Below the pieces are notes generated by a model, which saw only the letters and a list, made by a program, of their open reading frames with translations, did not search any database and had not been told where the DNA came from. From contig OX597822.1 in NCBI GenBank assembly GCA_951406725.2, forward strand, positions 28,954,001 through 29,018,000: DNA of 64,000 bases, read 5' to 3'. Shown piece after piece: positions 25,091 to 60,900 of this stretch; position 1 is the stretch's first letter; the number at the start of each line of letters is the position of its first letter. The DNA comes from Octopus vulgaris (lineage: Eukaryota). A program made the position numbers and the translations under genes.

Positions 25091-25291
<201 letters not shown>

Positions 25292-41240: not shown

Positions 41241-41475
41241 CTGTAAAAAGAAAGAAAAATTTATAGCAAGAAACAGGAATGATATTCTATGAAATGTTAA
41301 CTTAATTGAAAATTTTAAAAAACAAATTCACTCACTATGAATCTTAAATTTAAAAACTATTTTGAACTGATTTATATCCTATACATTAAACACATTTCCT
41401 TTGCAACAATGAAAAATATAAATAATCAATTTCAATTAAGTAATTAGCAATACAGATAATTTATGAACAGTTTAA

Positions 41476-42769
41476 CCCTTTCGTTACTAACCCGGCCGTA
41501 GCCGCCCGAAAAATTTTTTGGTTCAAAGTACCAACCCGGCCATACCCGGCCGTTAGAACCCATTGTTATTTAAATGTAAATTTGAACCCAAATCTCGTTG
41601 GTACATTCGTTAAAGCATGTGATTTCACATTGTAAATAGTTAAGTTATAATATCCGACATTGCTTGAAGTGATATCTCAACTCAGTGAATTTTGGGAGAT
41701 TTTTTTCCACATGTTTTACGGCATCGATTTTTCTTCAACTTTGAAAATGGATAGGAGTTTCATGTTATCAAGCATTGATTCCGAATTTAAAGCTTTGTCA
41801 ACGGAAAATAGGGAGATATCGAGAAAAAGAATGAAATAGGTACTAAAGCACGTGGTGTACAAAATAATGAATATTTTTTTATCCGAAAATGAAAGCAGCG
41901 CCTTCCGAAGAAACAAAGCGGCGAAGGCGACAGCGAAGACGATTTTACATCGGAATGAAGTAAAAAAAACTCTTAAAATATTTTTATTAGCAATTTTTCT
42001 GAAGAGATAAAGTTTATCTATAGCCTTTCTTAGGAAGTGAAACCATTAGACTTTTATTTTTTTCAGTATGCTAGTTTGAAGCAATCACTTCGGAAACAAA
42101 CTTACGCAGATTGTAAACAAACCCAAAATCGGGGTTCAAAGTTTGGGAAATTTGTGAAGCAAATACTGGGTACTGCGTGGATTTAGTTTTTATACAGGAA
42201 AAATAATGTTAGTCAGCATGGCCTAGGGAACGATGTGGTCTGGAATTTATCACTTCCATACCATAACCAGGGCCATATATTATTTTTTGACCGATTTCTT
42301 TTGTTCGGTCAAACTTACGGTGGATTCCAATATTTCACTTTATTCCACCTTTATGGTACACCTGTTGTGCATTAAATTCAACTGATGATCTAGTGATGTG
42401 CACAATTCTTCTTTATCAAAATTTTGTTGCATACCCATTTGAATATTAGCTGATGATTCATTTTCTATAGTGATGTTTAAACAAAATTTTAATTTTTTAC
42501 CTTTTGCTCAATTTAAAATTTTAATATTTTTACCTTTTGCTCAATTTACCTGGATTTACCTGTAATTAAAGTCACTTTGAGACAAAAGTTATGCAATAGA
42601 ATTGATTAAGAACCCTTTCTTTAATTATGTTCCAAATATCACATTAAAATGTTGATAAGTAAAAAAGTTACAGTTATTTAATGAAACAAGCCTAAATTCA
42701 TGATTATTTTAGAATTTAATTGAAACTCATGAGGGGTGTATTTTGGTCAGAAATATAGTAACGAAAGGG
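41476..42769. mobile_element. Non-autonomous piggyBac element, copy 2
   Basis: TTAA TSDs, same 14-bp TIRs and highly similar internal sequence to 28361-29762, same orientation. Confidence 0.92.
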
Positions 42770-43079
42770 TTAACAGAATTTTTGAACTTACCATATATTT
42801 TACCTTATACTTCCACTGTAAATTCTAACACTAAAAATATCTAACTGAAACTTCAATTTGGTTCAGTTGTCAAAACTTTTTGGCATCAATTACAGAATAA
42901 ATTCCATTTCAAATAATTTTAAAATAACATTTGTTCCCAAATATGTACTATTTTACCAAAATGGAATGTTTTATCAAAACTAGAGATTCATCAGGAAACC
43001 TTAACCTTTATATACTTTCCTAAATATACTTATTCCATGTTATCTTAATATACTTATTGTATGTTTTTATTTTTTTTAC

Positions 43080-43112
<33 letters not shown>

Positions 43113-43522
43113 TAAATAAATAAATGCACACACACACACACACAGGCAACACTTAAGCACATTGGGCAAAATGCTAAGCATTTGTCTCGGCTCATTACAT
43201 TAAAGAGGATAAACTATAAGTAGTCTTATAGCAGCATCTTGTTAGATAAAACCTTTACCATCATTATCAGAATATCATCAATCAAGAGCTTTCTGTTCGC
43301 TTACAGCTTTTTTGAGGTTTTTTTTTTAATGGTTATCTCACATTTCTTGCCAAAAGTTCATTATGCTTTCACAGCAATCTCATTCAGAGCAATGAGTGTT
43401 TCAGAAAACCAAAAATCTGGTTTGTATCAGAATGAAGGTGTATCTAATTTCTGTGACTTTAATATGTAGAAAGCAATAGGTTGTATTCTTTGAGACAAAA
43501 AGATTATGAAAATGTTACTCAC

Positions 43523-43655
43523 CGGCCATTATAGCGGTATGCTGTTGGGCCACCACGCCTATTATCATAGCTGTAGCTATTAGCACCCCTATTGCTTGGA
43601 GGGTAGTTAGTATTGTAGTATCGGTTAGCTTGAGGTTGGTAATTGCGGTCATAAT
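43523..43655 (-). CDS. DDX3: DDX3 N-terminal Y/N/R/G-rich exon (YDRNYQPQANRYYNTNYPPSNRGANSYSYDNRRGGPTAYRYNG)
   Basis: T-rich CAG acceptor, GTGAGT donor; phase 1-2 links upstream phase-1 exons to 41240. Confidence 0.88.
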
Positions 43656-46442
43656 CTGAGAAAAAAAATTTCGATATAGGTAATTTTGAATTAGATATAC
43701 AAAAATTTCCACAAAAGTTTTACTACAAAATCTTTAAAAAGTTTAAAACTGCAGCTTAATACTTTATTTTAAAAATTCAAGGTCATTTAAATTGTAAACT
43801 ATTTTGGAAAATACAATTCACCTTACAAATAAAATAAATAAAAGCAGCATTTGCACACAAGAACACACCTTTGGAGAAGGAATATCTTGGAGCAGATATA
43901 TTTGTATTTTAAGCTTAAAATTCAATGAAAGAAGTTATGAAGAGAATCAACTTAATCTTAAACCATTATGTCAATGCAGAAAACTATCACCTGTACCATT
44001 TCCTATATCTCATTTGCCGGAAGAACAAAACATTTTAGCAGAAAAACCCTGCCTTGTATAAAATAGTACGACTTGGTGAGAAGTAACAGTATTATAAGCC
44101 AATATGGTTACAAACTTACCACCAGATGAAAATTTAACAGTAAAATAGAGAGGCAATCAATTACCTAGTCAAACATTAATATGGGAAATGAAATACATCT
44201 CAAACAATGCTCTGTCTATATCAACTGTTTTGATAAATGGCCTAAACCTTATGTTCTGCAGCCAGCCATCAAAATAAAATATTCACAGAAGCACATCACA
44301 ATAGATTTGTGAATACAAAATATAAATGAAATTGCTGTTCCTCAAAGCAAATCAAAGTCCTGCGAATGTTAACTAAGCGTATTTCTGAACTTGAAATTTA
44401 TTATACTGCTGAAATTTCTACATTAGAGATGCCAAATATACCTCAAGGTAACAGTCACAAATTACAAATCAATAACTGAGCATAAGACTTAAACTACAAT
44501 TTCAAAGAGAAACCAAACAAATATTTCACTTTCTACTTATAATGAAAAACTTTAAAAGACTGCTCAATTACAAGTTTTAAAGTTTTGATTTACAACAACA
44601 AACCATTTGTATACAATATTTATATTAAACTACATCATGTGGCATTATTTATATTACACTGACTCTACAGAAAACAAGAACTTCGAAAAAGTCACAGAGA
44701 AAATTAGTGAACACCATGTAGATGCACAGAAATTGGAAGATGGATCTCAGCAATCATTTTATCTATTTTCAAATAGATAAAAAAGCAGTATTGAGAACTT
44801 AAATGAGTTCTTATGTGTTTGTTGCACAAAACTAGATTGTGTTAGTTCCAATAAGTTCAAATATTATTTTCTGAAATTTAACAATGTAGCAGTAAAACAT
44901 CAGGCTTCACAACTTGTGAGAGCAAAATGTAAACTAAATTATTCAACACCCAGTTGCTATAAAATGACTTCAGGATGGTTTTTTTATATTATTTTCATTT
45001 AAAACCTTAAATTACAATACACCATATCTTGAATTACTGCGTAACCTCAATAAAAAATATTTATAGCAAATGGTGATTCTAGAAGAAATGCTACAAATTT
45101 TTATACAAAAATCAAAAATTATTCATTGTTAATATCTCCAAGTCTAAAAATTGCTACAGGAATAATACTTTGAATAGAGGGAATCTTGTTTTTTTTGTTT
45201 TTTTTAACAACTCTCACATTCAAACCCCCAAATAAATATAAATAGAGAAAAAAAAACGTCAATACTCATGCACCATATATACTAAAGATATCTACAAAAA
45301 TAAAGCATGCAAAAAGAAAATGGTAGGACACAAAAAGAAAAATGAATATTTAGGAAAATATTTATTCATATGGTCTTTAAATACTATAGACCAAGTTATT
45401 GAAAAGAATAACTACCAAAACAAAATTGGATTTAGATAATTCTCTTATAAATTAAATTTAAATACTGTTTTGTATTTAAAAAAATCCAAATAATGCAATT
45501 TTATAGCTGCCTTTTTAAAACCAGACTTTCTGAAAGCAAAGTTTCTATGTCTACAAAACATTAGTACTAAGAATGTAGAAGAGGAGCACATGAATTAGCT
45601 GTTTATTCTGTTTAAAATAATTTGCAGTGGAAATTATTCAACTGCCCCCATCCGTGTTCAAAACTGCCTCAAGCATTAACCTAATCAAACCCTTTTTTGT
45701 GATAGCAGAATGTTCTGTGTAACAGTACAAAATATGAAATCATACACTAAAAATTACTTCAAAACAGATTGAGAATAAATTCATTTTTAACTTTTTCTAT
45801 CACTGTCAAACTTGAGAAATGATGCATAACTATTTAATGAGATTTTAATCTGAACATGTGAACAGTGCAGTCCAAATTAAAATCTAAAAATACTTCACTA
45901 AAAACAGTTTTGAGCAGTCTTTCAAAGTTTTTATTTTCATTAAAAACAAAAAAAAATTGAAAATTTAATTTCTAACACAAACAGATCCATCACAAACACT
46001 AAGTACCTAGTCTAGCAAGATTCTAATATTAATGAATCAGAAAAATTAAAACCTTTCTTATTTAAAAATACTTTTCTGCGTATAATGAAAAACTACTAGA
46101 TCATGAAATATGCTCCACAGGTAATCTGAACAAGAATATGTATGAATCTACTAAGCAATAGCTTAGTAAATGTTAAGTTTATAGCTACTTGTAGAGAGCA
46201 AACTGGAAGTAAAAATAATACTCAATGTAATATCTTTAACAGAAGCTATTAACAGAAATAACTAGTTCATGTCCACTCCATGTGAACAATAAAACATGCC
46301 ACAATGGGCAAAAATATACAGACGAATACACATACAACATGTGATTTCATTCAACAACATAAAACATGCATTGCCTTTTTTTTTTTTCATTCAAAGACAT
46401 TTGGTCAGCTGAAGCATACCCAAGGTCACTAAAACAACATAC

Positions 46443-46523
46443 TTGGTTGGCCAAGTCCTTGGGCTGGTAAGCCACCAATATAACCACTTCGTTGAGCAGC
46501 CCCATATGCTCCCAAGAAGTTAT
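46443..46523 (-). CDS. DDX3: Putative symmetric 81-nt cassette exon of DDX3 (NFLGAYGAAQRSGYIGGLPAQGLGQP)
   Basis: TTTCCCACTGTAG acceptor, GTATGT donor, phase 1-1, open frame, GC-rich island in an AT-rich intron. Confidence 0.7.
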
Positions 46524-48808
46524 CTACAGTGGGAAATAAACATATATTACTTATTTGCATTTAAACAGTACCCTAAAATAACAGGGTACCTGGTTTCAAT
46601 AGTAATTTTTAAAATATTTACTTTATGCAAATTTTAGGGCATGGCAATTTTCTTTTATCAATATACAGATTTCAAAGAGATCAAATGCATTTATTTAGTT
46701 TGCAATATTAAAATACAAATCATACTTGAGATCACAGTTGTTGAAATGGTCAATAGAAACTTTTGAAATTAATTGCATTAAATAAAAACAAAATGCTGCA
46801 TTATTAATTATTTAAATTTCTGAAATTCAGGAAACAAAAGTTCTCTAATTCTCAATTTTAAATAAACAGTACAGCTTAAAATTCAAAAGCACAATATTTA
46901 CATCACAACATTCAAATTTTAATTTAAATTTGTAATGACTAAATTTTACTATCATCACAAAAAAAGTGAATGGTTTTAAAATAGGAGACTTCAACTGGAG
47001 TCAGATAATTATCCATATTCTCAACATCCAGTCATACTTCAAATATACTTCATTGGCTATGGTATCACCCAATATTTAATTCTTTAATATTTTATCAGAA
47101 GGAAGTTAGCAAATTTGTGTCAATATCAATAAAATTTGCTTACAATTAATTAGAAGTTTTAGACTATCAACATTTTGGGTGGGGAGGATTCTGACAAATA
47201 TGATTTATTATTGCATCAAAAACGTGAAATACAAAATATAGTTTAAAATATTTAAACACAAGAACACTAATGCATTTCAGCACACTATATACAAAAGGAG
47301 TTTACAAATTGGATTCCAACTTATAAAACATGACCATCTACTCACATAAAGATGACCATCTACTCACATAAAGAAGTTTCCATTCCAACCAACTAAATTT
47401 TTAACTAATACAATTCATACAAAAGGCTGGTTAGGAAATTTAAAAGCAACCAAATCCAGTCATTTATAGCTGAGAATGAAATAAAATCCAAGCTTTTCAA
47501 TAATTTTACTGACAAAGACATTTCATTACAGAAATGTACATTAAGTTGTTTTATTTTAATGAAACAATGAAGCATGAATTATGCAATACCCACCAGTTCC
47601 ACTAAATTAAAAATGTGGAGCAAGATCATCCAAGTGAAAAAACAGCTTTATATGAAAAGCATTTGATTTACCATAAATGGGGGGGGGGGAGTGTGTACGT
47701 GTAAAAACATTTTTAAATGAACATTTAGGATTGTCTATAGGTATAAACAAACTACAAAATATAAACACTAAAACCTTTTCAAGAAAAATTTAAATGTATA
47801 CTATTTAAGTCCTACTTGTTCACAAAAACTTGGTTTGGGTCACTTAGAATGAAGAACTCAAAGTGCTAGATCTAAGTGTCATGGTTTCATTAAAAACAAT
47901 GAGTCCCAAATTATATTTTGTTTTTGTCTAGAAGATGACAGGTTGGGGTGACAGCAAGAAAATAATGATGGTGGTGGTGGTGGTGGTGATGGAGTGGGAA
48001 AGTGGGAGAGGAATAACAATGAGTGATAATGGTGGCGTGACCACAGCAGTGGAGGGAGCCAGTAGAGTTGGAGCTGTAGTGGGTGGCTACAATGATGGAG
48101 AGGATACACTGCTGAATGTAGAAATTTTAGTATTATGACCTTGATTTTTAGACATTTTATTGTTCCCACCTCATAGCTTGAGAAAATTCCAACATCAACA
48201 CATTTGTTGTCCCACCTTTACTGCCAACAACTTACAACCCATAAATGCATCACCACCGTAACTTTTGTACAATCTACACCTCACAACTAAAACCCCATCA
48301 TGATCATTTTAGAAATTACCACACCAACTTCCATCATCAACACTACCACCATGTACTAATATACATAATTCCATTGCCACCACCACATACCTCTTCTTTT
48401 TCAGGAGTACCACCTTTATCACTGTTATCTTGCTCCTATCAATCCAGTTGTCTCTCTGTCCATCAGTTTCTTTCTACGTGCAGCACTTCTATATGTTGTT
48501 AGCCACTAATCTACTCACCACTTAACCCTGCTAGCAACTAATCTCTGATGAGTCTTCAGATGAAACAAAATGTATTTTGCTGGACTCATTGTTTTCAATA
48601 TAAGTTTACATGCATAATGAACATATTTAATAAACATATTTAGATTTGCTATGTAAACAAGGCTCTTTCCGAAGAACAAACCAAGAAAAAGCTCAATTAC
48701 ACAAGTTTCATCTGGTTTTTTGCTAATTTTTCAAGAGTATCTATTCCATTCCACTCTACAGAAAAATAAAGCAGATTACAGATACTTATCAAAAATGCTA
48801 TGAGTAAC

Positions 48809-48916
48809 CTCTTTCAATGCTATCATGAACAGATAAACCGCTCTCCTCAAGGTTGCGCAGGTGCGGGGGCACATAACGCTCTTTAGATGCTGTAGGAGCA
48901 GGAGGAGGAGGAGACC
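48809..48916 (-). CDS. DDX3: DDX3 YVPPHLRN exon, downstream copy (SPPPPAPTASKERYVPPHLRNLEESGLSVHDSIER)
   Basis: TTTTTATAG acceptor, AG|GTTACT donor (weak), 108 nt, phase 1-1; SK.RY.PPHLRN as in DDX3X. Confidence 0.8.
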
Positions 48917-49944
48917 CTATAAAAACAAATTTATAAGTTTCCATTAACTGGGCATTCTTAAAAGGAATGGGAATATAAACTGTTCAAGTAAAACAAAACA
49001 GATTATTACATCTATGCTCAAATAACTAGTCAAAAATAAATTCTGAAAAATCTGAATTTATTTCAAAAATATTAAATATCTTTAATCTGTCTTCAGAAAA
49101 AAATTAACAGTATTGACTTTAAAATTTATCTTTGAAAGGTATTAACTGTTATAAGAAGAAAAGTAATTTTTAAAACTTACTTTCAATTTATCAACAAAAT
49201 TAACTTTCATAATGAAGATGAGTTTATAGAAAAAAAATTACATTTAATTCAAAATAAACAGTTCAAGGATGTGTTTATGCCAGCTACTGAGACAGCATGT
49301 GTGAATATGCAAATAATTGGCAAATGTTACTCAGAGCATTTTTGATTAACTTGTTGGCTTCTTTACCTCTATCTTTCTCTCGAGCAAAACAGATTAGACA
49401 CTTTTGACTTGATAGATCAGTAAAATACAAAACAAGTCTAGCCAAGCCATTCTCTAGTCCATTTCGCAGAGAGAGCCCTGTGGTTAAAACCACAGGATGT
49501 TTGTTCAAGATTAAATACATGTTTAACAGAAAACATGTAAATTTATTTACATGTTTCTCTACATGTAAATAATGTAGCCATACACAGGCATGTGTATATA
49601 TAAGCATATATTTAAGTCGAGAATGATTTTATACTTACAGTGTGGAAAAGCAATAACACTTTTAATTGTGAAAATCATCAGAAAAACAAAGTCTCTTTAA
49701 AATTATCAATTTTATAATTAAACAAAAAAGCTGAAAGGAAAAAACATTAAAGCTTTTAAACTTTACACATTACAAATACTTCATGAAAGCCTTTTTTTTT
49801 TGTTTTTTTTTTTTAAATGATCAAGACTGAAGAGTGAAATATGATGCTGCCCCCTTTATCATCTGGGATTCCACAAATGAAAATTATCTAGAGGTATGAA
49901 AATCTGCCCCCAAAATTGCAATAACTAAAAAGTGATCCACCCAC

Positions 49945-50088
49945 CTCTATTTCTCCGGTCATCACCAGGTGGAATCAAATCTCTTTCAAGGCTATCATGA
50001 ACAGATAAACTTCTCTCCTCATGGTTGCGCAGGTGCGGGGGCACATAACGCTCTTTAGATACTGTAGGAGCAGGAGGAGGAGGAGAAC
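49945..50088 (-). CDS. DDX3: DDX3 YVPPHLRN exon, upstream copy (SPPPPAPTVSKERYVPPHLRNHEERSLSVHDSLERDLIPPGDDRRNR)
   Basis: TTTTTATAG acceptor, AG|GTGGGT donor, 144 nt, phase 1-1, open frame. Confidence 0.8.
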
Positions 50089-53000
50089 CTATAAAAACAA
50101 ATTTATAAGTATTCCATTAAATTGGGCATTCTTAAAAAGAATGGAAAAATAAACTGTTGAAGCCAAACAGAAAACAACAGAATATCACAGAACTAAGTCA
50201 ATGCTTAACTAACACTGAAAGATTTGATCTACTCTCAACAGTGTTGAAATATCTTTAGCCTGTCTTTTTAAAAAAAAAGTAAACATTAGCATTAACTTAA
50301 AAATGTATATCTTTGAAAGGTATCATCAACTGTTATGTAAAAAATGTCATTTTAGAACTGCTTTTAAGTATCTATAGCAGAATTTTAATTTTCGTAGTGA
50401 AATTTGAACTTGTGGGAAAAGAAAATTACATCTGAATGATTCCAATAATTAGTTCAATGAAGTGTTTATGCCAGCTGTTGCTTCAGATAGCGAAAATGCT
50501 GAACAATGGTTAAATTACACAACAAATTTAATGCCTGTAAAGTCTAATTTAATCTATGTTAGGAATTTAAATTAAGTTCTTACATCATATTCACACAAAA
50601 TATTTGAAACCATCTCAAAACACTCTAGTCATGTTAATGGACATTCATTCATGGAGACATTTCCAGGGTTTTTGGTATGGGTTAGTTTAACACCCCTCAA
50701 AAGTAGCACACGGAATTTTTTTTCTCTCTATCTCTTTGTGAGAGAACTATAATAGACTTTCTAAAAACATAATGCACTGAAGTATTTCTAAACCAAACAT
50801 TCGAAATATTGATATCCTTTTTTTTGCTTTGTTTTTTTTTTTTTGTTTGTTTTTCTTTTCACGCTTTGTAGTTTACCACCAATATTCCCACTACGTAAAT
50901 ATACAAGTTTCTGCCAGAAAATCTTTTCTGGCTTTTGTCTGAATAGAAAGGGAGAATGACCAATATGATAAAGAGAGTAATTGTGAGAATATTTAGCAGC
51001 AGGTGGAAAACCAGTCCAACAGCAAGCAACAAAACTTCACTCTAGACAGTCCATTATTAATTAATAAATTAAAACTTCATTAGAGAAAGTCCTTTCAAAT
51101 TTTGAAAAGGAAACAACTGTTCCAGAGATAAGGTCATGTTCAGTTGTTTAAATCCCTTTGAGAAATCTTCCATTAAATCACAGCAAACATTTTATCTTAA
51201 TACCTAAATAAAAAAAAAGCAAATACATAATTTTTCAATGTTAGAATGCAAAATTCATTTAGAATAAACAGTATACTTTACCCAAAAGAATGCTTCAAAT
51301 GAAATTTTTTACTGTTAACATTTTTTCCCCTATGTTTGACTAATGGAGGAAAGCACTTGTTCAGCTCTAAAACAACTGACAGTAAGAGTTACTAAGCAAG
51401 ATTAGTTTTGCTAATGTTCAGCTTTGAAGTATAAAATTTAATATCTGAAGGAAACTGGAATGAATGTGGTATTGTTTTCAGCAAGAAATTTGAAATTTAA
51501 AGAGTAGAACTGACAGGCAGAAGAAAGACAACTGTAATGGTGAAGGCAACAAATTGGCAACTTGAGAGCAGACACTACTTACAATAACAGTGAAAATGTT
51601 GAATTGTATGGCTTCAATCATGTGTATATACACATGCACAAACCCACACCCATACATTTTGAGGTATATTTGTAATTTTAAAATGAACCATTCCTAGTCC
51701 TAAAAATTCAAAGAATGCAGACAAGTTTGAATGAAAATGTTGGTGTTGCAATGATACTTAAATATAAGCATGTGTTACATGGTTATTTGTAAATGAATAA
51801 CCAACTAAGCAGTCCTGTAAATGTTTTTCCTATAGAGGTATAAATTTAAAATATTGCAAAAGAATTATTTCTAACATCTCCATTCCTGAAAGATGTAGAG
51901 TTAAAAGTCAATGAGAAGGTTGCCGAAAGAAAGTCTAAGAATTTAGGAGGAGCAAATGATATAGAATTGTGCATTAAAGGAATTAAATAGATCAACTTAA
52001 GAGCAAGTATAAGGATGTCACTGATATCTAACCAGAGAGAAAAAAAAACATCCACATTAACTGAAAACAGGAGTAGAAACATCTAAGATCCATTTTGTCA
52101 AGTTTGCATAGGTCAGACAGAGTTTGAGGCAAATTTCCAACAGTTGGAGGTTTCCAAACAAGATGATTTCCCCAGTGTTAGACATGTTCTCACAGCATAT
52201 TAACAATGAATGATACTGCTTGTATGACAGTGACAACTATTACATGATATCAAGACTAGGAGACTGGACTGAAACCTACACAAGACAAGTTTCTTTCAGT
52301 TTCTGTCTACCAAATCCACTCACAAGACTTTGGTTGGCCCAGGGCTATACTAAAAGACACCTGCTCAAGAATCTTAAAAGTAAAATTGATCTTAAAAATC
52401 AGAAAAAATAAAATAGGAAAAGTATTTGGCCATTGTATAATGACCTAAATTTTAATAATGGTTTTTCCAAATAGAGTCAACTTGTGTTAATGGCTGGGGT
52501 TTTCCAAATCAAATGACAGCAAAAACAAACATTCTTAATACAAAAACCATAAAATTATCAAAACATTCACCTTAAGAGCCAGAAAAATTGAGTTGCTTTT
52601 AGAAATTACAAATAACTAATACAAAACCTGGATTTAAAATAATTATGCCAATTACAAAAGAACTAAAAGATAGTCATGCTACATGACCCATTCATTAATC
52701 TAACTTGCCCCCTGAGCCTATGGAAAAGAAACCTATTGATTCTACACTGAAAAAGGCAACCCTTTTTACCATAAAGTAACATATATATTAAGGGTAATCA
52801 ATCTGACAAAATAGTGTCAAATTAATATGATGATATCCAAGATTGCAGACCTTAGAAGATGTACTGTTAACCAATGAAAAGGAAACTGTAATAACAATTA
52901 TAAAAGCATTTCTACATTTAATATCTTGATTTTAATTTACACTGAATCAATTTTATTACACCAATGGAATTCTGGAAAAACAAAAACCATCAGGTAGCAT

Positions 53001-53652
53001 TTTTTTTGAGTTCTTTAAGCATCAAGCTGGACAACTGAAAATGCAGATGAATCTAGAACCAAAATTTGGTCCTTGCATATATCAAGTCCACTGTTGAAAT
53101 TGTCACTGGTTGACAATTTCTGCATCAGTTGTTTGCTCATTGGACACAGTCAGTTTGCTTTCAATGAAAGCCAGCTAAAATCATCTTTAAAATCAGAAAA
53201 TAAATTTAAAATAGCAAATTGTAAAAATGACCTAAACTATTAATGGTTTTTCCAAATCAAGTCAATTTGTGTTAATGGCTGGAGGTTTTCCCAATCAGGT
53301 GTCAGCAGAAACAAACATTTGTCTATGCATATGACATATATACACACAGGCATCTACACACGTACATGTCATACACACATGCATGTGTCATACACACACA
53401 TCTATAAATATATGTACACACACAGAGGCATCTACACACGTACGTCATACACACATGCACGTGTCATAAATACACACACACACATATAGGCACAGGAGAG
53501 GCTGTGTGGTAAGTGCTCAATTACCAACCACATGGTTCCAAGATCCGTCCGACTGCATGGCACCTTGGGCAGGGGTTTTATACTATAGACTCGGGCCAAC
53601 CAAAACTTTGAGTAGATTTAGAAGACAGAAACTGAAAGAAGCCATCATATGC

Positions 53653-53687
<35 letters not shown>

Positions 53688-53924
53688 ATATATAGGTGTG
53701 TGTATATGTTTGTCCCCACATTTCTTGAAAATCAATGCTGGTGTGTTTATGTCACTGTAACTTAGTGGTTCAACAAAAGAGACTGAGAATAAGTATTAGG
53801 CTTACAAAGACCTGGGATCAATTTGCTCAACTAAAGGCAGTGCCCCAGCATGGCTGCAGTCAAATGACAAACAAATAAAATAATAAAAGAATACATAAAC
53901 ACGTGTGTGTGTGTGTGTGTATAC

Positions 53925-53950
53925 ACACACCGAAGTCTATACATAGACGG

Positions 53951-53987
<37 letters not shown>

Positions 53988-55335
53988 CACACACACACAC
54001 CGACGTCTACACATATATACACACACACATCGACGTCTATACATATATATACACACACCGACGTCTATACATATATATACACACCGACGTCTATACATAT
54101 ATATACACACTGACGTCTATACATATATATACACACCGACGTCTATACATATATATACACACACACACACCGACGTCTATACATATACACACACACCGAC
54201 GTCTATACATATATACACACACCGACGTCTATACATACATACACACACCGACGTCTACACATATATATACACACACCGACGTCTACACATATATATACAC
54301 ACACCGACGCCTATACATATAATATATACACACACCGACGCCTATACATATAATATATACACACACCGACGTCTATACATATAATATATACACACACCGA
54401 CGTCTATACATATAATATATACACACACCGACGTCTATACATATATACACACACACCGACGTCTATACATATATACACACACACCGACGTCTATACATAT
54501 ATATACACACACCGACGTCTATACATATATATACACACCGATGTCTGCACATATATATACACACACACACACCGATGTCTATACATATATATATACACAT
54601 ACCGACGTCTATACATATATATATACACATACCGACGTCTATACATATATATATACACATACCGACGTCTATACATATATATACACATACCGACGTCTAT
54701 ACATATATATACACACACACCGACGTCTATACATATATATACACACACACCGACGTCTATACATATATATACACACACCGACGTCTATACATATATATAT
54801 ACACACACCGACGTCTATACATATATACACACACACCGACGTCTATACATATATATACACACCGATGTCTGCACATATATATACACACACACCGATGTCT
54901 ATACATATATATATATATACACATACCGACGTCTATACATACATATATACACATACCGACGTCTATACATATATATATACACATACCGACGTCTATACAT
55001 ATATATATACACATACCGACGTCTATACATATATATATATACACATACCGACGTCTATACATATATATATACACATACCGACGTCTATACATATATATAT
55101 ACACATACCGACGTCTATACATATATATATATATACACATACCGACGTCTATACATATATATACACACACATCGACGTCTATACATATATATGCACACAC
55201 ATCGACGTCTATACATATATATACACACACACCGACGTCTATACATATATATACACACACCGACGTCTATACATATATATACACACACCGACGTCTATAC
55301 ATATATATATACACACACCGACGTCTATACATATA
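53925..55335. repeat. Minisatellite, unit ~26-34 bp: (CA)n-CCGACGTCTATACA-(TA)n
   Basis: Dozens of near-identical units seen directly; explains the long HTDVYTY/RRLYIY ORFs. Confidence 0.97.
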
Positions 55336-56395
55336 TGCACACGTGTGTGCATATATATATATACATACACACACACTTGTCTATATATTCATGAGTGCGT
55401 GTCCCTCGCTTGACAACCGATGTTGGTGTGTTTATGTCCCCGTAACTTAGCGATCCAGCTAAAGAAACCAATACAATAAGTATCAGGCTTACAAGGAATA
55501 AGCCCTGGGCTTGATTTCTTTTACTGAAACCCATCCAGCATGGTCACAGTTAAACGACAACACACACAAGTGTCTACATATGTGTGTGTGTAGGCGCATG
55601 CGTGACATTATGGTCAGAAGCTTGCTTCCTAGCAAGGTTTCAGTTCTGCTGTGTGGCACCTTGGGCAAACCAAAGCACTGAGTGAATTCAGTAGAGAGAA
55701 ACTGAGAAAAGTGTCATGTATGACTGAGCTCATAATTAAAACTGCAATAGCAAAGTGCAGTGTAAAGTGATTAAATTGTAATTGACAACCTGCAAGAAAT
55801 TTAACCAGAAATTATTGACAAGGTTTATTAAACAGCCTTTTATTGCAAAGTAGATCAATAGGACATTTAACCTATTGACAGCATCTGATCTCAAATGTAA
55901 CGCTAACAGTTAAATCTGGAATAATTTTTTAATACATCAATACTGAAAATTTTAAAATATCCACTGAATCTTCAGATTCAAGATTTATGTATGAATTGTT
56001 GAAATACTGAAGAGTGGCTTTTTCTATCCAACCCAAAAATATGTATTTAACAACAAAGCACTTTAGACTGTCAGCTCAGTTTTGGCTAATATTATAATTT
56101 TTGTACTGTTATGAAATAAATTACAGACTGAACTTAAGATAAAAAGGAAGTCGGATCCATTGCATCATATCCAAAAATAGCCTCAAGCAGTGTATTGTGT
56201 ATTCAGTATTGCATCATAATGAAAATACAGGATTGCTTCCACAAGCAATTTACACATTTTTCTAAAGCACTAGTGTGGTTGATTTCCCAGTTCAGTCCCA
56301 CTGAATGGCACATTGAGCAAGAGTCTTCTACTATAGCCCCAGGCTGATCAAAGCCTCATAAGTGAATTTGGTTGAGGGAAATTAAAAGCTTGTGT

Positions 56396-56426
<31 letters not shown>

Positions 56427-56591
56427 TAGGAAGGCATCCAGCTGTAGAAACACTGCCAGATCAGACTGGGCCTGGTGCAGCCTTCTGGCTTCCCAGACCC
56501 CAGTTGAACCATCCAACCCATGCTAGCATGGAAAGCGGACGTTAAACGATGATGATGATGATATATGTGTGTGTGTGTATCCACATTTAAC

Positions 56592-56777
56592 ATCACATGA
56601 TGGTTATAAACAAGTGTCACCATCATACAAGCAATGTTATCCATTTTGAGTTTTCCTTGACACATGTCTAGCCATGGGTAAAAATCACATGATGGTTATA
56701 AACAAGTGTCACCATCATACAAGCAATGTTATCCGTTTTGAGTTTTCCTTGACACATGTCTAGCCATGGGTAAAAAT
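56592..56777. repeat. Near-perfect tandem duplication, period 92 bp
   Basis: ATCACATGATGGTTATAAAC...GCCATGGGTAAAA starts at 56592 and 56684. Confidence 0.9.
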
Positions 56778-57914
56778 TACTGTGCTTAGAAACAGATGAG
56801 GATTGGTGAAATGAAGGGCATCTAGCCACAGAATATCTGCCTCAACAAACTGCATCTGACCCATGCAAGTATGGAAAAGTGAACATTAAAGCAATGATCC
56901 TAAACAAGAAACACTGTGATTTAAGACTTGTTTGTCTACTGCCCTAGTGAGGACAAGTATATTTTACACTAATGGTTTCATTTATAAGGAGAGATGTTTG
57001 TTTAACATTTTCCAAAAAAAAAAACTGGAAAACATCAGATAAATATAACAGTTGTAACAAAATACTGCTTCTCCATAGTATTGCATATACTAGGATTTAT
57101 GAAGTGATTTGTACAGGATTTCAAGAAAGCGGAACACTATGAACGTTTTACAGATCAATTTTTAAAATATTGAAAACAGTGAAGTTTGGTGTTCACATCG
57201 CAAATAAAATCATTTTTACTAGAATTCTTTGTGAAACCAGGATGGAGTACAATTACTGAAGTCCATTTGCCACACAAACAAAAGATCAAAGAGACATCAA
57301 AGACAATAAGGAAACAAGATGTGCATAATGACCTAGTGGTCAAATAGTGAAAAGTTATATTCACTGTATTATTGCACTCCACTTGAACAAGCTTTTTGAT
57401 ATTAACAAAAAAGCAATGTTTAATAAATTAAGATTCAAAACTAATTTTGTACATCCAATATAAATCAGCAACTTCAAATGCTTTGAGCTCATTGCAAATT
57501 ATCAAATCAACTGATAACATTTCATGCTAAAGGGGCAATGATTTTCTTAAACTAATCAGAAAGAGCACCAGAACCGGACAATTTATATATGTTGGCAAGG
57601 AAGAAAATGACAGGAATTGGCTAAGATTACAAACATTTTAAAAATTACAGGTTTATTTAAACTTTTAATACAAGAAATTTTTAAAAATAAATGAACACAA
57701 TACAGTGGTACAGCTTAAAAGTAAAATATGCAATTTCGCATTTCAGTTCTGAAAAAAAGTGATTATTGAAATTGATGAAGTCCAACAAGCCAATAAAACA
57801 GCTCTTATCTAATCTGAAATCATAAATCAGAATTTTATATATCAGAAATAGCAATAGTTGAATAAAATAACTTACTACTGGGTACAGGTCTGGACTGGCT
57901 CGGAAAGTACTCAC

Positions 57915-57966
57915 TTTTTCCTCTAGTATTTCTTGCAGACGAGCTATTCAAGTCTAGCCCAGCAAA
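57915..57966 (-). CDS. DDX3: DDX3 exon 2 with the second half of the NES (FAGLDLNSSSARNTRGK); an alternative donor extends it to 57876
   Basis: TTTTCAG acceptor, GTGAGT donor; FAGLDLNSS matches the DDX3X N-terminus as recalled; the ATG-bearing exon 1 was not found in the window. Confidence 0.9.
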
Positions 57967-60900
57967 CTGAAAAATAAAAGTTATTTTAAAATTTATATTC
58001 ATTGATAAAGGTTTTATATATTTTGTATCAAGGAAAAAATATGGTGGCAAATCAATGATACTGGATCAATTAAAATTGGTTTAAATAGACCATAACTTCA
58101 AGATAATTAGATACAAAAAAACTCAATGAACATTAAATTTTAGTGCAAATCTTAATTTTTCCATGTTCCCAAATCATTTTCATTCAAAACGCACTGCACA
58201 GACACAGCATAAATTTATAATTGCAAGAACACATTTCCCTTCTATATCATCATCATCATTTAGCGTCCGCTTTCCATGCTAGCATGGGTCTGACAGTTCA
58301 ACTGGGGTCTGGGAAGCCAGAAGGCTGCACCAGGCCCAGTCTGATCTGGCAATGTTTCTACAGCTGGATGCCCTTCCTAACACCAACCACTCTGAGTGTA
58401 GTGGGTGCTTTTTACGTGCCAGACGGGGAGGGGGAGAGGCATGACATTTGAAAATAAGGCATAACTGATCTGCATACAGCATGCATCTGAGTGTGTGTGC
58501 ATATTCACGTGCCAATCTGCATAACTGCATGTGAATGGTGCATATGTGCATGTACAAATGTATGCATATAAGGATACATATTTATGTACTTAAGATCCAC
58601 TGCCAAGCTGCATTGTCTTAATTTTAGAGAGCTGTCTTGCAGTTTCTAATTTTCAAATACACCTACAGTGAATTTTTTACCTTGTAATTGCAGTGATACT
58701 TTCAATTCTTTTTTTTTTAACTCATTATCTATGTGAGACAACTGCTTAAATCTATGCAGAACACTCCAAGAGATTTGTTGTACCTTACACACACTTTCAT
58801 GTGTGTGAAGGGTAATGCAAGAAATTTAATACAAAACAGGGTCAAAATTAGTGACATTATACTCAAGTGTAAGGGATAAAATTATTTTTAAACTCAAAGA
58901 TAGAATTGTACTCAAGTAAATACAGTGCATCAAACACACACAAAATGGTTTCAAAAAGCTGCACAAAGCATATAGAGATATCATTGGCAAAACAAGACTT
59001 GGCAGTGTATTCAGGATACAACTGTGTGCAGGTACATTACACACACACACACACACATCATCTCTTTATTCCATGCCACCTTCCTACCTAACTTTCTGCC
59101 TACACACATCCTGATAAAATGGAATTGTACCAAATCTCCCTACAGAACCCACTCCATCTTTCTTCATCATCCTCCCCTTTCCTACTAATGCTTAACACTA
59201 CTACTATTTCCAACTGTGCTGTTATTCTCCCTACTACCACCATGTCACAAAACTGTTCCTTTCATTAACTCACCAAAAATCATCACCCTCCTTTCAGTTA
59301 TAGTATTTCTTCAGTCTTGCCAGTTACAAGTGACCTCATTAGAAATGATAACACATAAGCACCTAGTACGCACTATAAAGGAGCTGGTGTTAAGGGCATC
59401 CAGCCACAGAAACCATGCCAATATGGAAGGTGGACATAAAATGACACATAAACACTTTTGTACACACATATATACAAAATACTGCATTATGTATATACTT
59501 AGATACACACTGCAAAGCTCAGATGAGGCCCACAACTGAATATTTGCTCTCACATCTCAGTGCTGCTGCACAAAAAAGACATCCTAGATCACAACAAGAA
59601 AGGGTTACACAACTGATTAGTATAAAGTTAGACACACTAACCTCTAACACACAAGCAAGCCATCTCTTTTGGCTTCTTTTTCAACTACCACTGATACATT
59701 CATTACACACCTATACACATGTTCACAGACATCTATCATTTTTACAAGTGTGTGTGTTTATATCTGTACATATTATACATTTTACATCTGTTTTCCATGC
59801 TAGCATACCTGGTCTTGCATTTTTTTTATGGTATCAGAACTATAAAGTTACCTTGCTACATAACCAAAACCCAATTCCAGATTTTGCTTCCATGACTGGA
59901 ATTTCAAATGGGCAACTTGTCTTAAATTTCTTTATTACAGCTTGGATCGCAATAAAAAGGGCTGCGAACGAAGCTTTTAATTCCTTACTGAACTTAATGG
60001 TGATTTTTCATCCTGCTCAACTTGAGTAGCTCTCAAACCTTTCATTTAGTTTTCATAGTGATAATCAAGTCAGAAGGCAAAGAAATTTTTAAAAAGCCTT
60101 CTTCAGAAAGATGAATGATAAATATAAGAGTTTGTTCCGAGCCATGTATTTCTACAGCACTTTTCTCATACAGTATATGTTATCAGTGATGCCGATTCCC
60201 AGAACACATGTAGATTAATACTGTCCCTAGAAAACAGATGTAAGTTTGCCTTTCAATACTGACTTTAGGTTTAGTCCCACTAACTGGTACCTATTTCTTC
60301 TACTCTGGTAGATAGAAACTGCACAGAAGCTAATGCTGTGTGTAGATATTTATGTATACATAACACATAGATCTCATAACTTAATCATGTAATACATAGA
60401 CAAATATCTGCCACACAAAATAAGTACCGAAGTGAAATGATCAACTAAATCTTAAAGCCCAAGAATTACTGCAATTCAATGACTGGAACAAATGAAAACA
60501 ATAATTGCACTAAAATTTAATTAACAAAACTTCTGTACAGCAGTGCATAATTCAAATTGACTGTATGAGCATCCCATAGTAAAATCTTTTATGAACATAT
60601 GATTACACAAGAATGTTGCAAAAGAAATGTGTATAAACATACAAATACATTACTATCCACATATAATTTACATTGAATACAATATCATCACCTTTCTTCC
60701 ACAAGTTATTACCAATGTACAGGATTTCAAACAAGTGATAGGTTTTATTCTAATTTTACTTTTATATATCATTGCTATTATGCAAAAGTACCAGAAGTCC
60801 AAAACGTAGCTTTTTCAGAAAATGTAAAAATAGTTTCACCATTTCATTTATTTTTACATTAGCAACAGTTTCAGCTTAACAATAATACTTTGTTGGGTGC

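Follow-up and report, generated by a model that had tools for sequence, protein, structure and literature searches.

A truncated duplicate of the motif-bearing DDX3 exon in Octopus vulgaris is probably a silent pseudo-exon enclosed by an inverted repeat

In the window, the 64,000-nt stretch of Octopus vulgaris DNA analysed here, a DDX3 exon encoding the YVPPHLR motif is present twice, as copy A and copy B. Copy B is probably a silent pseudo-exon, made by gap filling in the manner of Pack-TIR elements, muted by a predicted stem and refreshed by gene conversion. The duplication is real, but the reading given in the initial annotation, according to which the gene could make isoforms with zero, one or two motifs, is mostly not supported.

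Judged from its sequence, the host gene of the duplicated exon is a DDX3/PL10 helicase of the Ded1/DDX3 subfamily. A search with exon A retrieves the DDX3X protein of O. bimaculoides (P0001) at 96% identity. The core exons are 83-100% identical to this protein, which comprises the DEAD-box core and the N-terminal YxPPHLR, and P0001 maps exon by exon onto 57966-25091 by tblastn. This identity confirms the earlier assignment of the gene to DDX3. Exon 1 lies about 6 kb outside the window. The exons concerned are the following:

57876..57966, minus strand: DDX3 exon 2 (91 nt), the upstream partner of A; placed by tblastn, and the loose-end letters at 50088 are its 3' end
49945..50088, minus strand: copy A, the DDX3 exon in use, 144 nt, phase 1-1, carrying YVPPHLR; seen in joints and matching P0001 residues 47-93
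48809..48916, minus strand: copy B, a 108-nt truncated duplicate, likely a pseudo-exon; six differences from A, skipped by the joints in four of four runs
46443..46523, minus strand: exon C, an 81-nt cassette exon; included and skipped forms are found (contigs; P0001 versus P0003)
43523..43655, minus strand: exon D; placed by tblastn and contig joints

Copies A (50088-49945, 144 nt) and B (48916-48809, 108 nt) lie on the minus strand with an offset of 1172 nt, and a genome search for the exon found these two copies in total. They are homologous neighbouring exons of compatible phase. Their acceptors are identical (TTTTTATAG), the identity covering the last 20 nt, and each copy exhibits a GT donor, an open phase-1 frame, SPPPPAP and YVPPHLRN. 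The initial annotation was accurate with regard to the coordinates, lengths, offset, acceptors, donors, frames and both motifs, and its statement that all exon combinations are in frame is borne out by the phases and frames. Two of its claims hold in part. The exon is indeed duplicated, but B corresponds to the opening 108 nt of A rather than to the whole exon; the upstream introns are indeed homologous, but the homology starts at 49325 (equivalent to 50515), beyond the 49271 and 50462 that had been proposed. The upstream donor had been placed at 57915, which proved incorrect: the exon 2 that is joined to A ends at 57876. Position 57915 is an in-phase, well-scoring GT, and its use was not seen among the loose contig ends listed.

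An assembly artefact, raised together with the duplication as a possible explanation of it, was rejected and has practically no chance of being correct. The two upstream introns diverge by 26%, the flanks are unique, and independent contigs of run X1 cross both copies and their unique flanks (46496-48880, 48859-49974, 49945-50052 and 50031-52000). In addition, both 3' ends are found in the run labelled organism C, which is described below.

The RNA evidence comes from four of the 23 listed runs, belonging to four studies with organism labels A, A, B and C, and covers the region 43300-52000; the word shares of the other 19 runs and three rows at 0.00 were left out of the evidence. The four runs contain RNA, since spliced GT-AG joints are present. 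All four consist of assembled contigs from unspecified tissues, and such contigs lose rare variants and may collapse or prune an alternative path that is 94% identical. The joint from A to exon C (49945>46523) was found in all four runs, at contig depths of 57, 150, 37 and 9, and the joint from A to exon D (49945>43655) in three of them, at depths of 101, 49 and 6. The contigs of all four runs also exhibit the joint from C to D. Upstream, the letters of the loose ends at 50088 correspond to the 3' end of exon 2 (57876) in X9, X10 and X12.

Both junctions that had been proposed from A into exons C and D were therefore found, whereas none passes through 48916 or 48809: among the four joints listed for 43300-52000 in the contigs of the four runs, of which the fourth is a non-splice joint described below for organism C, none lies at either boundary of B. 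Spliced use of both copies, which tandem alternative exons need, was accordingly seen for A in four runs and for B in none of the four, in contigs from which rare forms can drop out. No B-derived contig cover was found in X9 and X10, where A reaches depths of 200 and 74, and the depth bins over B are matched within 0.01 by intronic contigs in both X9 (3.08 and 10.2) and X10 (0.40 and 7.36). In X1, unspliced contigs cross B at a depth of 8.6-9.7, versus 74 for A. Copy B is absent from the dominant transcript forms; rare or tissue-specific use is possible. The initial annotation had named a lack of junction reads into one copy as a result that would speak against it, and this is what the contigs show for B. 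The isoforms that it envisaged, with B alone or with A and B together, found no support, with no B joint listed in the four runs and none of these products among 113 proteins.

The boundaries of B point to an inverted repeat, and its anatomy comprises the following features:

48809..49325, minus strand: the whole copied unit, 517 nt (intron and 108 exon bases); aligns to 50515-49981
49981..50515, minus strand: the source of the copy, 535 nt, from the alignment
49326..49346, minus strand: arm 1 of the inverted repeat, the upstream one in the transcript; complementary to arm 2 at 20 of 21 positions, duplex -24.6 kcal/mol
48788..48808, minus strand: arm 2 of the inverted repeat, which opens with the donor GT of B; predicted pairing of 0.98-1.0 at donor positions +1 to +8
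48610..48808, minus strand: old dispersed repeat beginning with arm 2; 71% over 136 nt to L012, E 6.7e-8
49367..49546, minus strand: degenerate inverted similarity to 48600-48771, which extends the repeat outward; score 68, reached by 0 of 200 shuffles

The upstream introns of A and B are homologous at 76% over 509 nt (E 8e-92). This homology begins at the first base past arm 1 and stops at the last base before arm 2. The match of B to exon A is limited to the opening 108 nt and does not include the donor of A; it stops at the point where A has GAG-ATT, so that the GT of B stands where A reads AT. The sequence right after B exhibits no similarity to the downstream intron of A (score 38 versus a null of 35.9). 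The GT after B belongs to the repeat arm and not to the exon.

The 21-nt inverted repeat itself (49346-49326 and 48808-48788) was found by self-comparison. With regard to the flanks, the repeat on the right matches L012, which lies on another contig, with a score of 121 against a shuffle maximum of 39, and decayed inverted similarity reaches about 200 nt outward on each side (score 68 versus a shuffle maximum of 43). The segment 49367..49546 taken alone does not match L012 (20 of 200 shuffles reach its score), and a genome search with the left flank gave no other match. In both L012 and a second locus, L017, GC stands in place of the GT of B, and the sequence continues into an ATTT that is also present in the template at the left junction, a stretch of 4 nt in AT-rich DNA. 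Neither contains a palindrome or a long inverted arrangement. The arm sequence has one other match in the genome, which is about the chance level (0.7 expected); this match, L007, has one mismatch, no wider similarity and no family, and was dismissed as chance. A possible target-site duplication of 6 nt next to the arms, alike at four of six positions, was rejected because the repeat extends past arm 2. The searches gave no repeat family, and neither a target-site duplication nor an empty site was identified, the outer ends of the repeat being too decayed to show such a duplication.

Folding was performed at 37 C and across the 517-nt loop. The complementary arms are predicted to flank B and to cover its splice site: in a 751-nt fold, arm 1 is predicted to pair with donor positions +1 to +8 at a probability of 0.98-1.0. 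A comparable inverted match of more than 13 nt was found at none of 250 sampled intronic GT sites, and a 596-nt region is predicted to fold more stably than every one of its 100 shuffled versions (z -4.2). The arms exhibit one mismatch in 21, versus 22-36% expected from the age of the copy, with P between 0.04 and 0.001 for a comparison chosen post hoc. The donor of B scores 3.6 bits, which is lower than 13 of the 15 donors of the gene, on a small, home-made matrix derived from these same 15 donors. Two genuine donors of the gene (1.0 and 1.3) fall below that of B, and 161 of 1193 GT sites in 41300-57800 score at least as high. Read-through past the donor of B meets a stop four codons on, and a strong GT (9.8) lies 398 nt from the acceptor of B.

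The divergence between the two copies is uneven. Within the exon, 6 of 108 sites differ, and all six differences change an amino acid, none being silent (P 0.19 versus neutrality, with few changes). The acceptor flank differs at 4 of 68 sites and the far intron at 84 of 329, or 36% by another aligner; the upstream introns differ at 26% of aligned sites. The exon and 70 nt of acceptor flank are thus about 94% alike, versus 74% in the far intron. This conserved block has 10 differences in 176 sites, versus 21-32 expected for neutral change in one lineage (P at most 0.006). Of about 26 silent sites, none is changed, versus 6-9 predicted at intron-level divergence (P under 0.002). The likeness is at the nucleotide level, because the reverse would be expected from selection on the protein. 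B departs from the A exon of O. bimaculoides at five of the six differences, as judged by codons against P0001. We infer that the likeness of A and B reflects gene conversion at a later time, over a tract of about 180 nt, which we prefer, or constraint on a splicing element.

In the run of organism C, one contig (depth 5.12) follows the upstream intron of A to 50007, exhibits two other letters and continues from 48822. It gives a B-ended exon of 98 nt that is out of frame, the B end being 10 nt short. This run also contains the 3' joints of A and sequence at 49242-49580, and both 3' ends therefore exist there. The contig is probably an A/B chimera joined through shared sequence; the B end is without the 10 nt either way, but a single contig is weak evidence.

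These features are consistent with the following origin for B. A break would have occurred at the centre of an old foldback or MITE-like element in the intron after exon A, and it would have been repaired by gap filling from a template 1.2 kb away. Gap filling would have stopped 36 nt short of the donor of A, and arm 2 of the repeat would have supplied the GT that follows B. In the pre-mRNA, the arms are predicted to pair, to loop out the copy and to bury the only in-frame GT able to close B. Later gene conversion from A, and not selection on the protein encoded by B, probably keeps the exon and its acceptor alike, and selection possibly keeps the stem, as the post hoc complementarity of the arms may suggest. 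What speaks against a silent pseudo-exon is that the frame of B is still open, its acceptor perfect and its motif intact, and that the block of exon and acceptor is better conserved than expected from neutral drift. Should this origin be correct, a duplicate exon may be born muted, as the repeat that captures it both supplies and hides its donor, and such a muted birth could be a route by which an essential gene carries a spare exon cheaply.

The retained frame and acceptor are also what would be seen if B were a latent regulated exon, with a stem that comes apart in certain tissues or at certain temperatures or editing states and yields DDX3 with B alone or with A and B. We consider this unlikely. 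The in-frame joins, the shared acceptor, the high likeness of exon and flank relative to the far intron, and arms whose complementarity exceeds that expected from the age of the copy all favour it, but no B joint is found in the four runs, B words occur in none of the 113 proteins, no difference is silent, and the B-type end in organism C is out of frame. A more specific version, in which the 21-bp stem acts as an RNA switch responding to low temperature, A-to-I editing or DDX3's own unwinding, so that B is spliced after A to give a two-motif DDX3 and skipping gives a motif-free form, is decidedly unlikely. If B were a regulated exon, its interest would be much higher, and a two-motif octopus DDX3 could exhibit altered behaviour in condensates or initiation complexes. 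The same nucleotide-level conservation, confined to exactly the acceptor and the exon, could instead mark B as a non-coding splicing element that tunes the use of A or the level of DDX3, either as a decoy acceptor or, if its donor is masked, as the entry to a poison exon. The stop reached on read-through and the strong downstream GT fit this rather unlikely possibility; nevertheless, none of the joints listed for the four runs enters at 48916 or leaves from 48519, and conversion gives the same pattern without any function.

A simpler history would be a tandem duplication of the whole exon followed by a deletion in B, with a repeat that is incidental or later and a weak donor that alone causes skipping. 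Tandem exon duplications are common, being reported for 7-17% of metazoan genes (PMC3342872), and a weak similarity to the sequence downstream of A is found at 47643-47259 (score 91 versus a shuffle maximum of 71). However, both breakpoints fall exactly on the arms, and the sequence after B resembles a dispersed repeat and not the downstream intron of A, which makes this history quite improbable.

With regard to known systems, the probably silent and captured B resembles single-copy Pack-TIRs, which are described as lying mostly near their parent, with microhomology, and as explained by gap filling that is independent of transposition (Tan et al. 2021, PMC8277862). Like these, B is a single copy with its parent within 5 kb and lies inside inverted-repeat sequence, and the ATTT at its left junction may be a short microhomology. 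Unlike the Pack-TIRs described there, B lies inside its own parent gene, and an arm supplies its splice donor and is predicted to mask it. Membership would need a named TIR family, a target-site duplication or an empty site at the orthologous locus, and B is accordingly a candidate. Pseudoexon 3 of glycophorin B is reported as a silent duplicate that is exchanged by gene conversion, as in GYP(B-A-B) (PMC11073628). It shares with B a duplicated exon silent through its splice site and an exchange of sequence with the active copy, both of which are probable for B. In contrast, the glycophorin copies of that report belong to paralogous genes and the splice site is inactive, whereas A and B belong to one gene and the GT of B is intact and predicted to be base-paired.

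Complementary regions have been reported to lower the inclusion of looped exons and to cover inactive splice sites (PMC8052449). In the octopus gene, similarly, paired intronic arms are predicted to surround the exon and to overlap an unused donor; the cases in that report are conserved across vertebrates and supported by probing, whereas the octopus stem is a prediction from one species. Tandem exon duplication with mutually exclusive splicing, as described in PMC3342872, likewise involves two homologous copies of the same phase side by side. Unlike the exons described there, B is an incomplete copy without silent differences, and it exhibits no splicing in our contigs. It likely adds a captured, silenced pseudo-exon to the known kinds.

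The motif exon was also followed in other molluscs, in a set of 113 DDX3-type proteins obtained from searches and cluster look-ups, from which the exon-C fragment P0114 was excluded. None of the 113 contains two motifs or B-specific words, which is thin evidence with regard to B because the clusters hold few octopus species. The motif count across cephalopods and other molluscs suggested in the initial annotation accordingly returned no two-motif DDX3 among these proteins. The octopus models P0001-P0003 use copy A alone of the two exon copies. Motifs were tallied in the 102 proteins that fit the N-terminal pattern, the other 11 being set aside: 88 exhibit one YxPPHLR and 14 exhibit none. Motif-bearing counterparts occur in the same cluster or species for 13 of the 14. 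Four motif-free proteins are of cephalopod type, namely P0036, P0039 and P0041, in a cluster holding Sepia pharaonis, and P0007, found beside P0042; nine are bivalve isoforms, comprising oyster P0032 and eight RefSeq isoforms from scallops; the last of the 14, P0017, is an incomplete model from a snail. The gap in P0036, P0039 and P0007 corresponds to the motif exon, and the junction residue is the one expected from a phase-1 skip.

At the level of protein sequences, this shows the motif exon as a cassette in molluscs. In this gene, regulation likely acts on copy A, a cassette that in other molluscs takes the motif with it when it is skipped. The motif-free isoform that had been proposed for the octopus is accordingly plausible, being seen in other cephalopods and in bivalves; in the octopus itself, none was seen in the contigs listed for 43300-52000, a region that ends short of exon 2. 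No octopus counterpart of the short alternative segment of P0041 was found. Among short protein fragments, no product of B was found, and one unspliced exon-C ORF (P0114) was present, which is weak evidence; a metagenome scan with the exon core gave 0 matches and is uninformative. A literature search of partial coverage returned nothing on splicing of the motif exon in molluscs or on the B duplicate.

As is usual in the Ded1/DDX3 subfamily, the spliced octopus protein contains one motif; unlike the subfamily pattern, the motif in molluscs is carried by an exon that some isoforms leave out. The motif region of DDX3 is disordered. A review reports the Y(I/V)PPHLR of DDX3 as mapped as an eIF4E site (PMC9642913), a premise that was carried into the earlier proposal that B tunes cap-complex valency. 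It holds in part: alanine substitution of the human motif is reported to abolish co-purification with initiation factors and to fail in translation rescue, but a peptide of the human DDX3X motif exhibited no direct binding to yeast eIF4E by NMR (both PMC11251518). Direct eIF4E binding by the motif is thus disputed, and tuning of cap-complex valency is doubly uncertain. In the octopus motif, the residue after L is R, and not hydrophobic as the canonical YXXXXL-hydrophobic pattern requires. Deletion of the motif is reported to reduce LAF-1 phase separation (bioRxiv 10.1101/2020.01.06.894576), and the cephalopod and bivalve isoforms with and without the motif are natural proteins to compare.

Alternative splicing in the DDX3/PL10 gene, encoded on the minus strand, was seen at exon C, both splice forms of which occur in the assembled contigs of three RNA runs (X9, X10 and X12) and among the cuttlefish-cluster proteins. 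The features concerned, together with the repeats around the gene, are as follows (window positions).

46443-46523, minus strand: exon C, 81 nt, alternatively spliced
57915, minus strand: alternative donor that keeps the phase, lying within exon 2 and 39 nt short of its end at 57876; score 10.5 bits on a matrix from the gene's own 15 donors
53300-55400, within intron 2 of DDX3: long array, unit of ~30 nt, CACACCGACGTCTATACATATA-type
56433-56559 and 58246-58372: 127-nt inverted repeat, 94%, either side of exon 2, spacing 1686 nt
48603-48540 and 47941-47884: inverted pair, 37 nt, 86%, ~700 nt apart, second to the 21-nt arms around B, the partial copy of the motif exon

The alternative donor within exon 2 scores well, yet no use of it was seen among the run contig ends listed. 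In a fourth run, X1, long unspliced contigs span the intron between the motif exon A and exon C (46496-49974) at a depth of 8.6-9.7, and the intron between exons C and D is almost bare. This possibly reflects a slow or retained A-C intron, but parts cannot be ranked by contig depth. Loose ends with nearly identical letters at 46372 and 50716 (X9, X10 and X12) probably stem from other transcripts that match here over a short length.

The YVPPH(L/M/Q)R exon is absent from DDX3 isoforms P0036, P0039, P0041, P0007, P0032 and P0078-P0099, a set made up of transcript proteins of cephalopod type and RefSeq models from bivalves; in P0041, a short different segment replaces it.

With regard to the repeats, the arms flanking exon 2 could also pair in the pre-mRNA. 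For the 37-nt pair, whose end has matches at four or more further loci (L010, L011, L013 and L014), the likely reading is another old TIR element, adjoining B.

At the 3' end, the O. bimaculoides model (P0001) ends at an exon finishing near 25091, and the octopus model P0003 extends past ~25091 to a last exon, 23427-23272, which the window contains.
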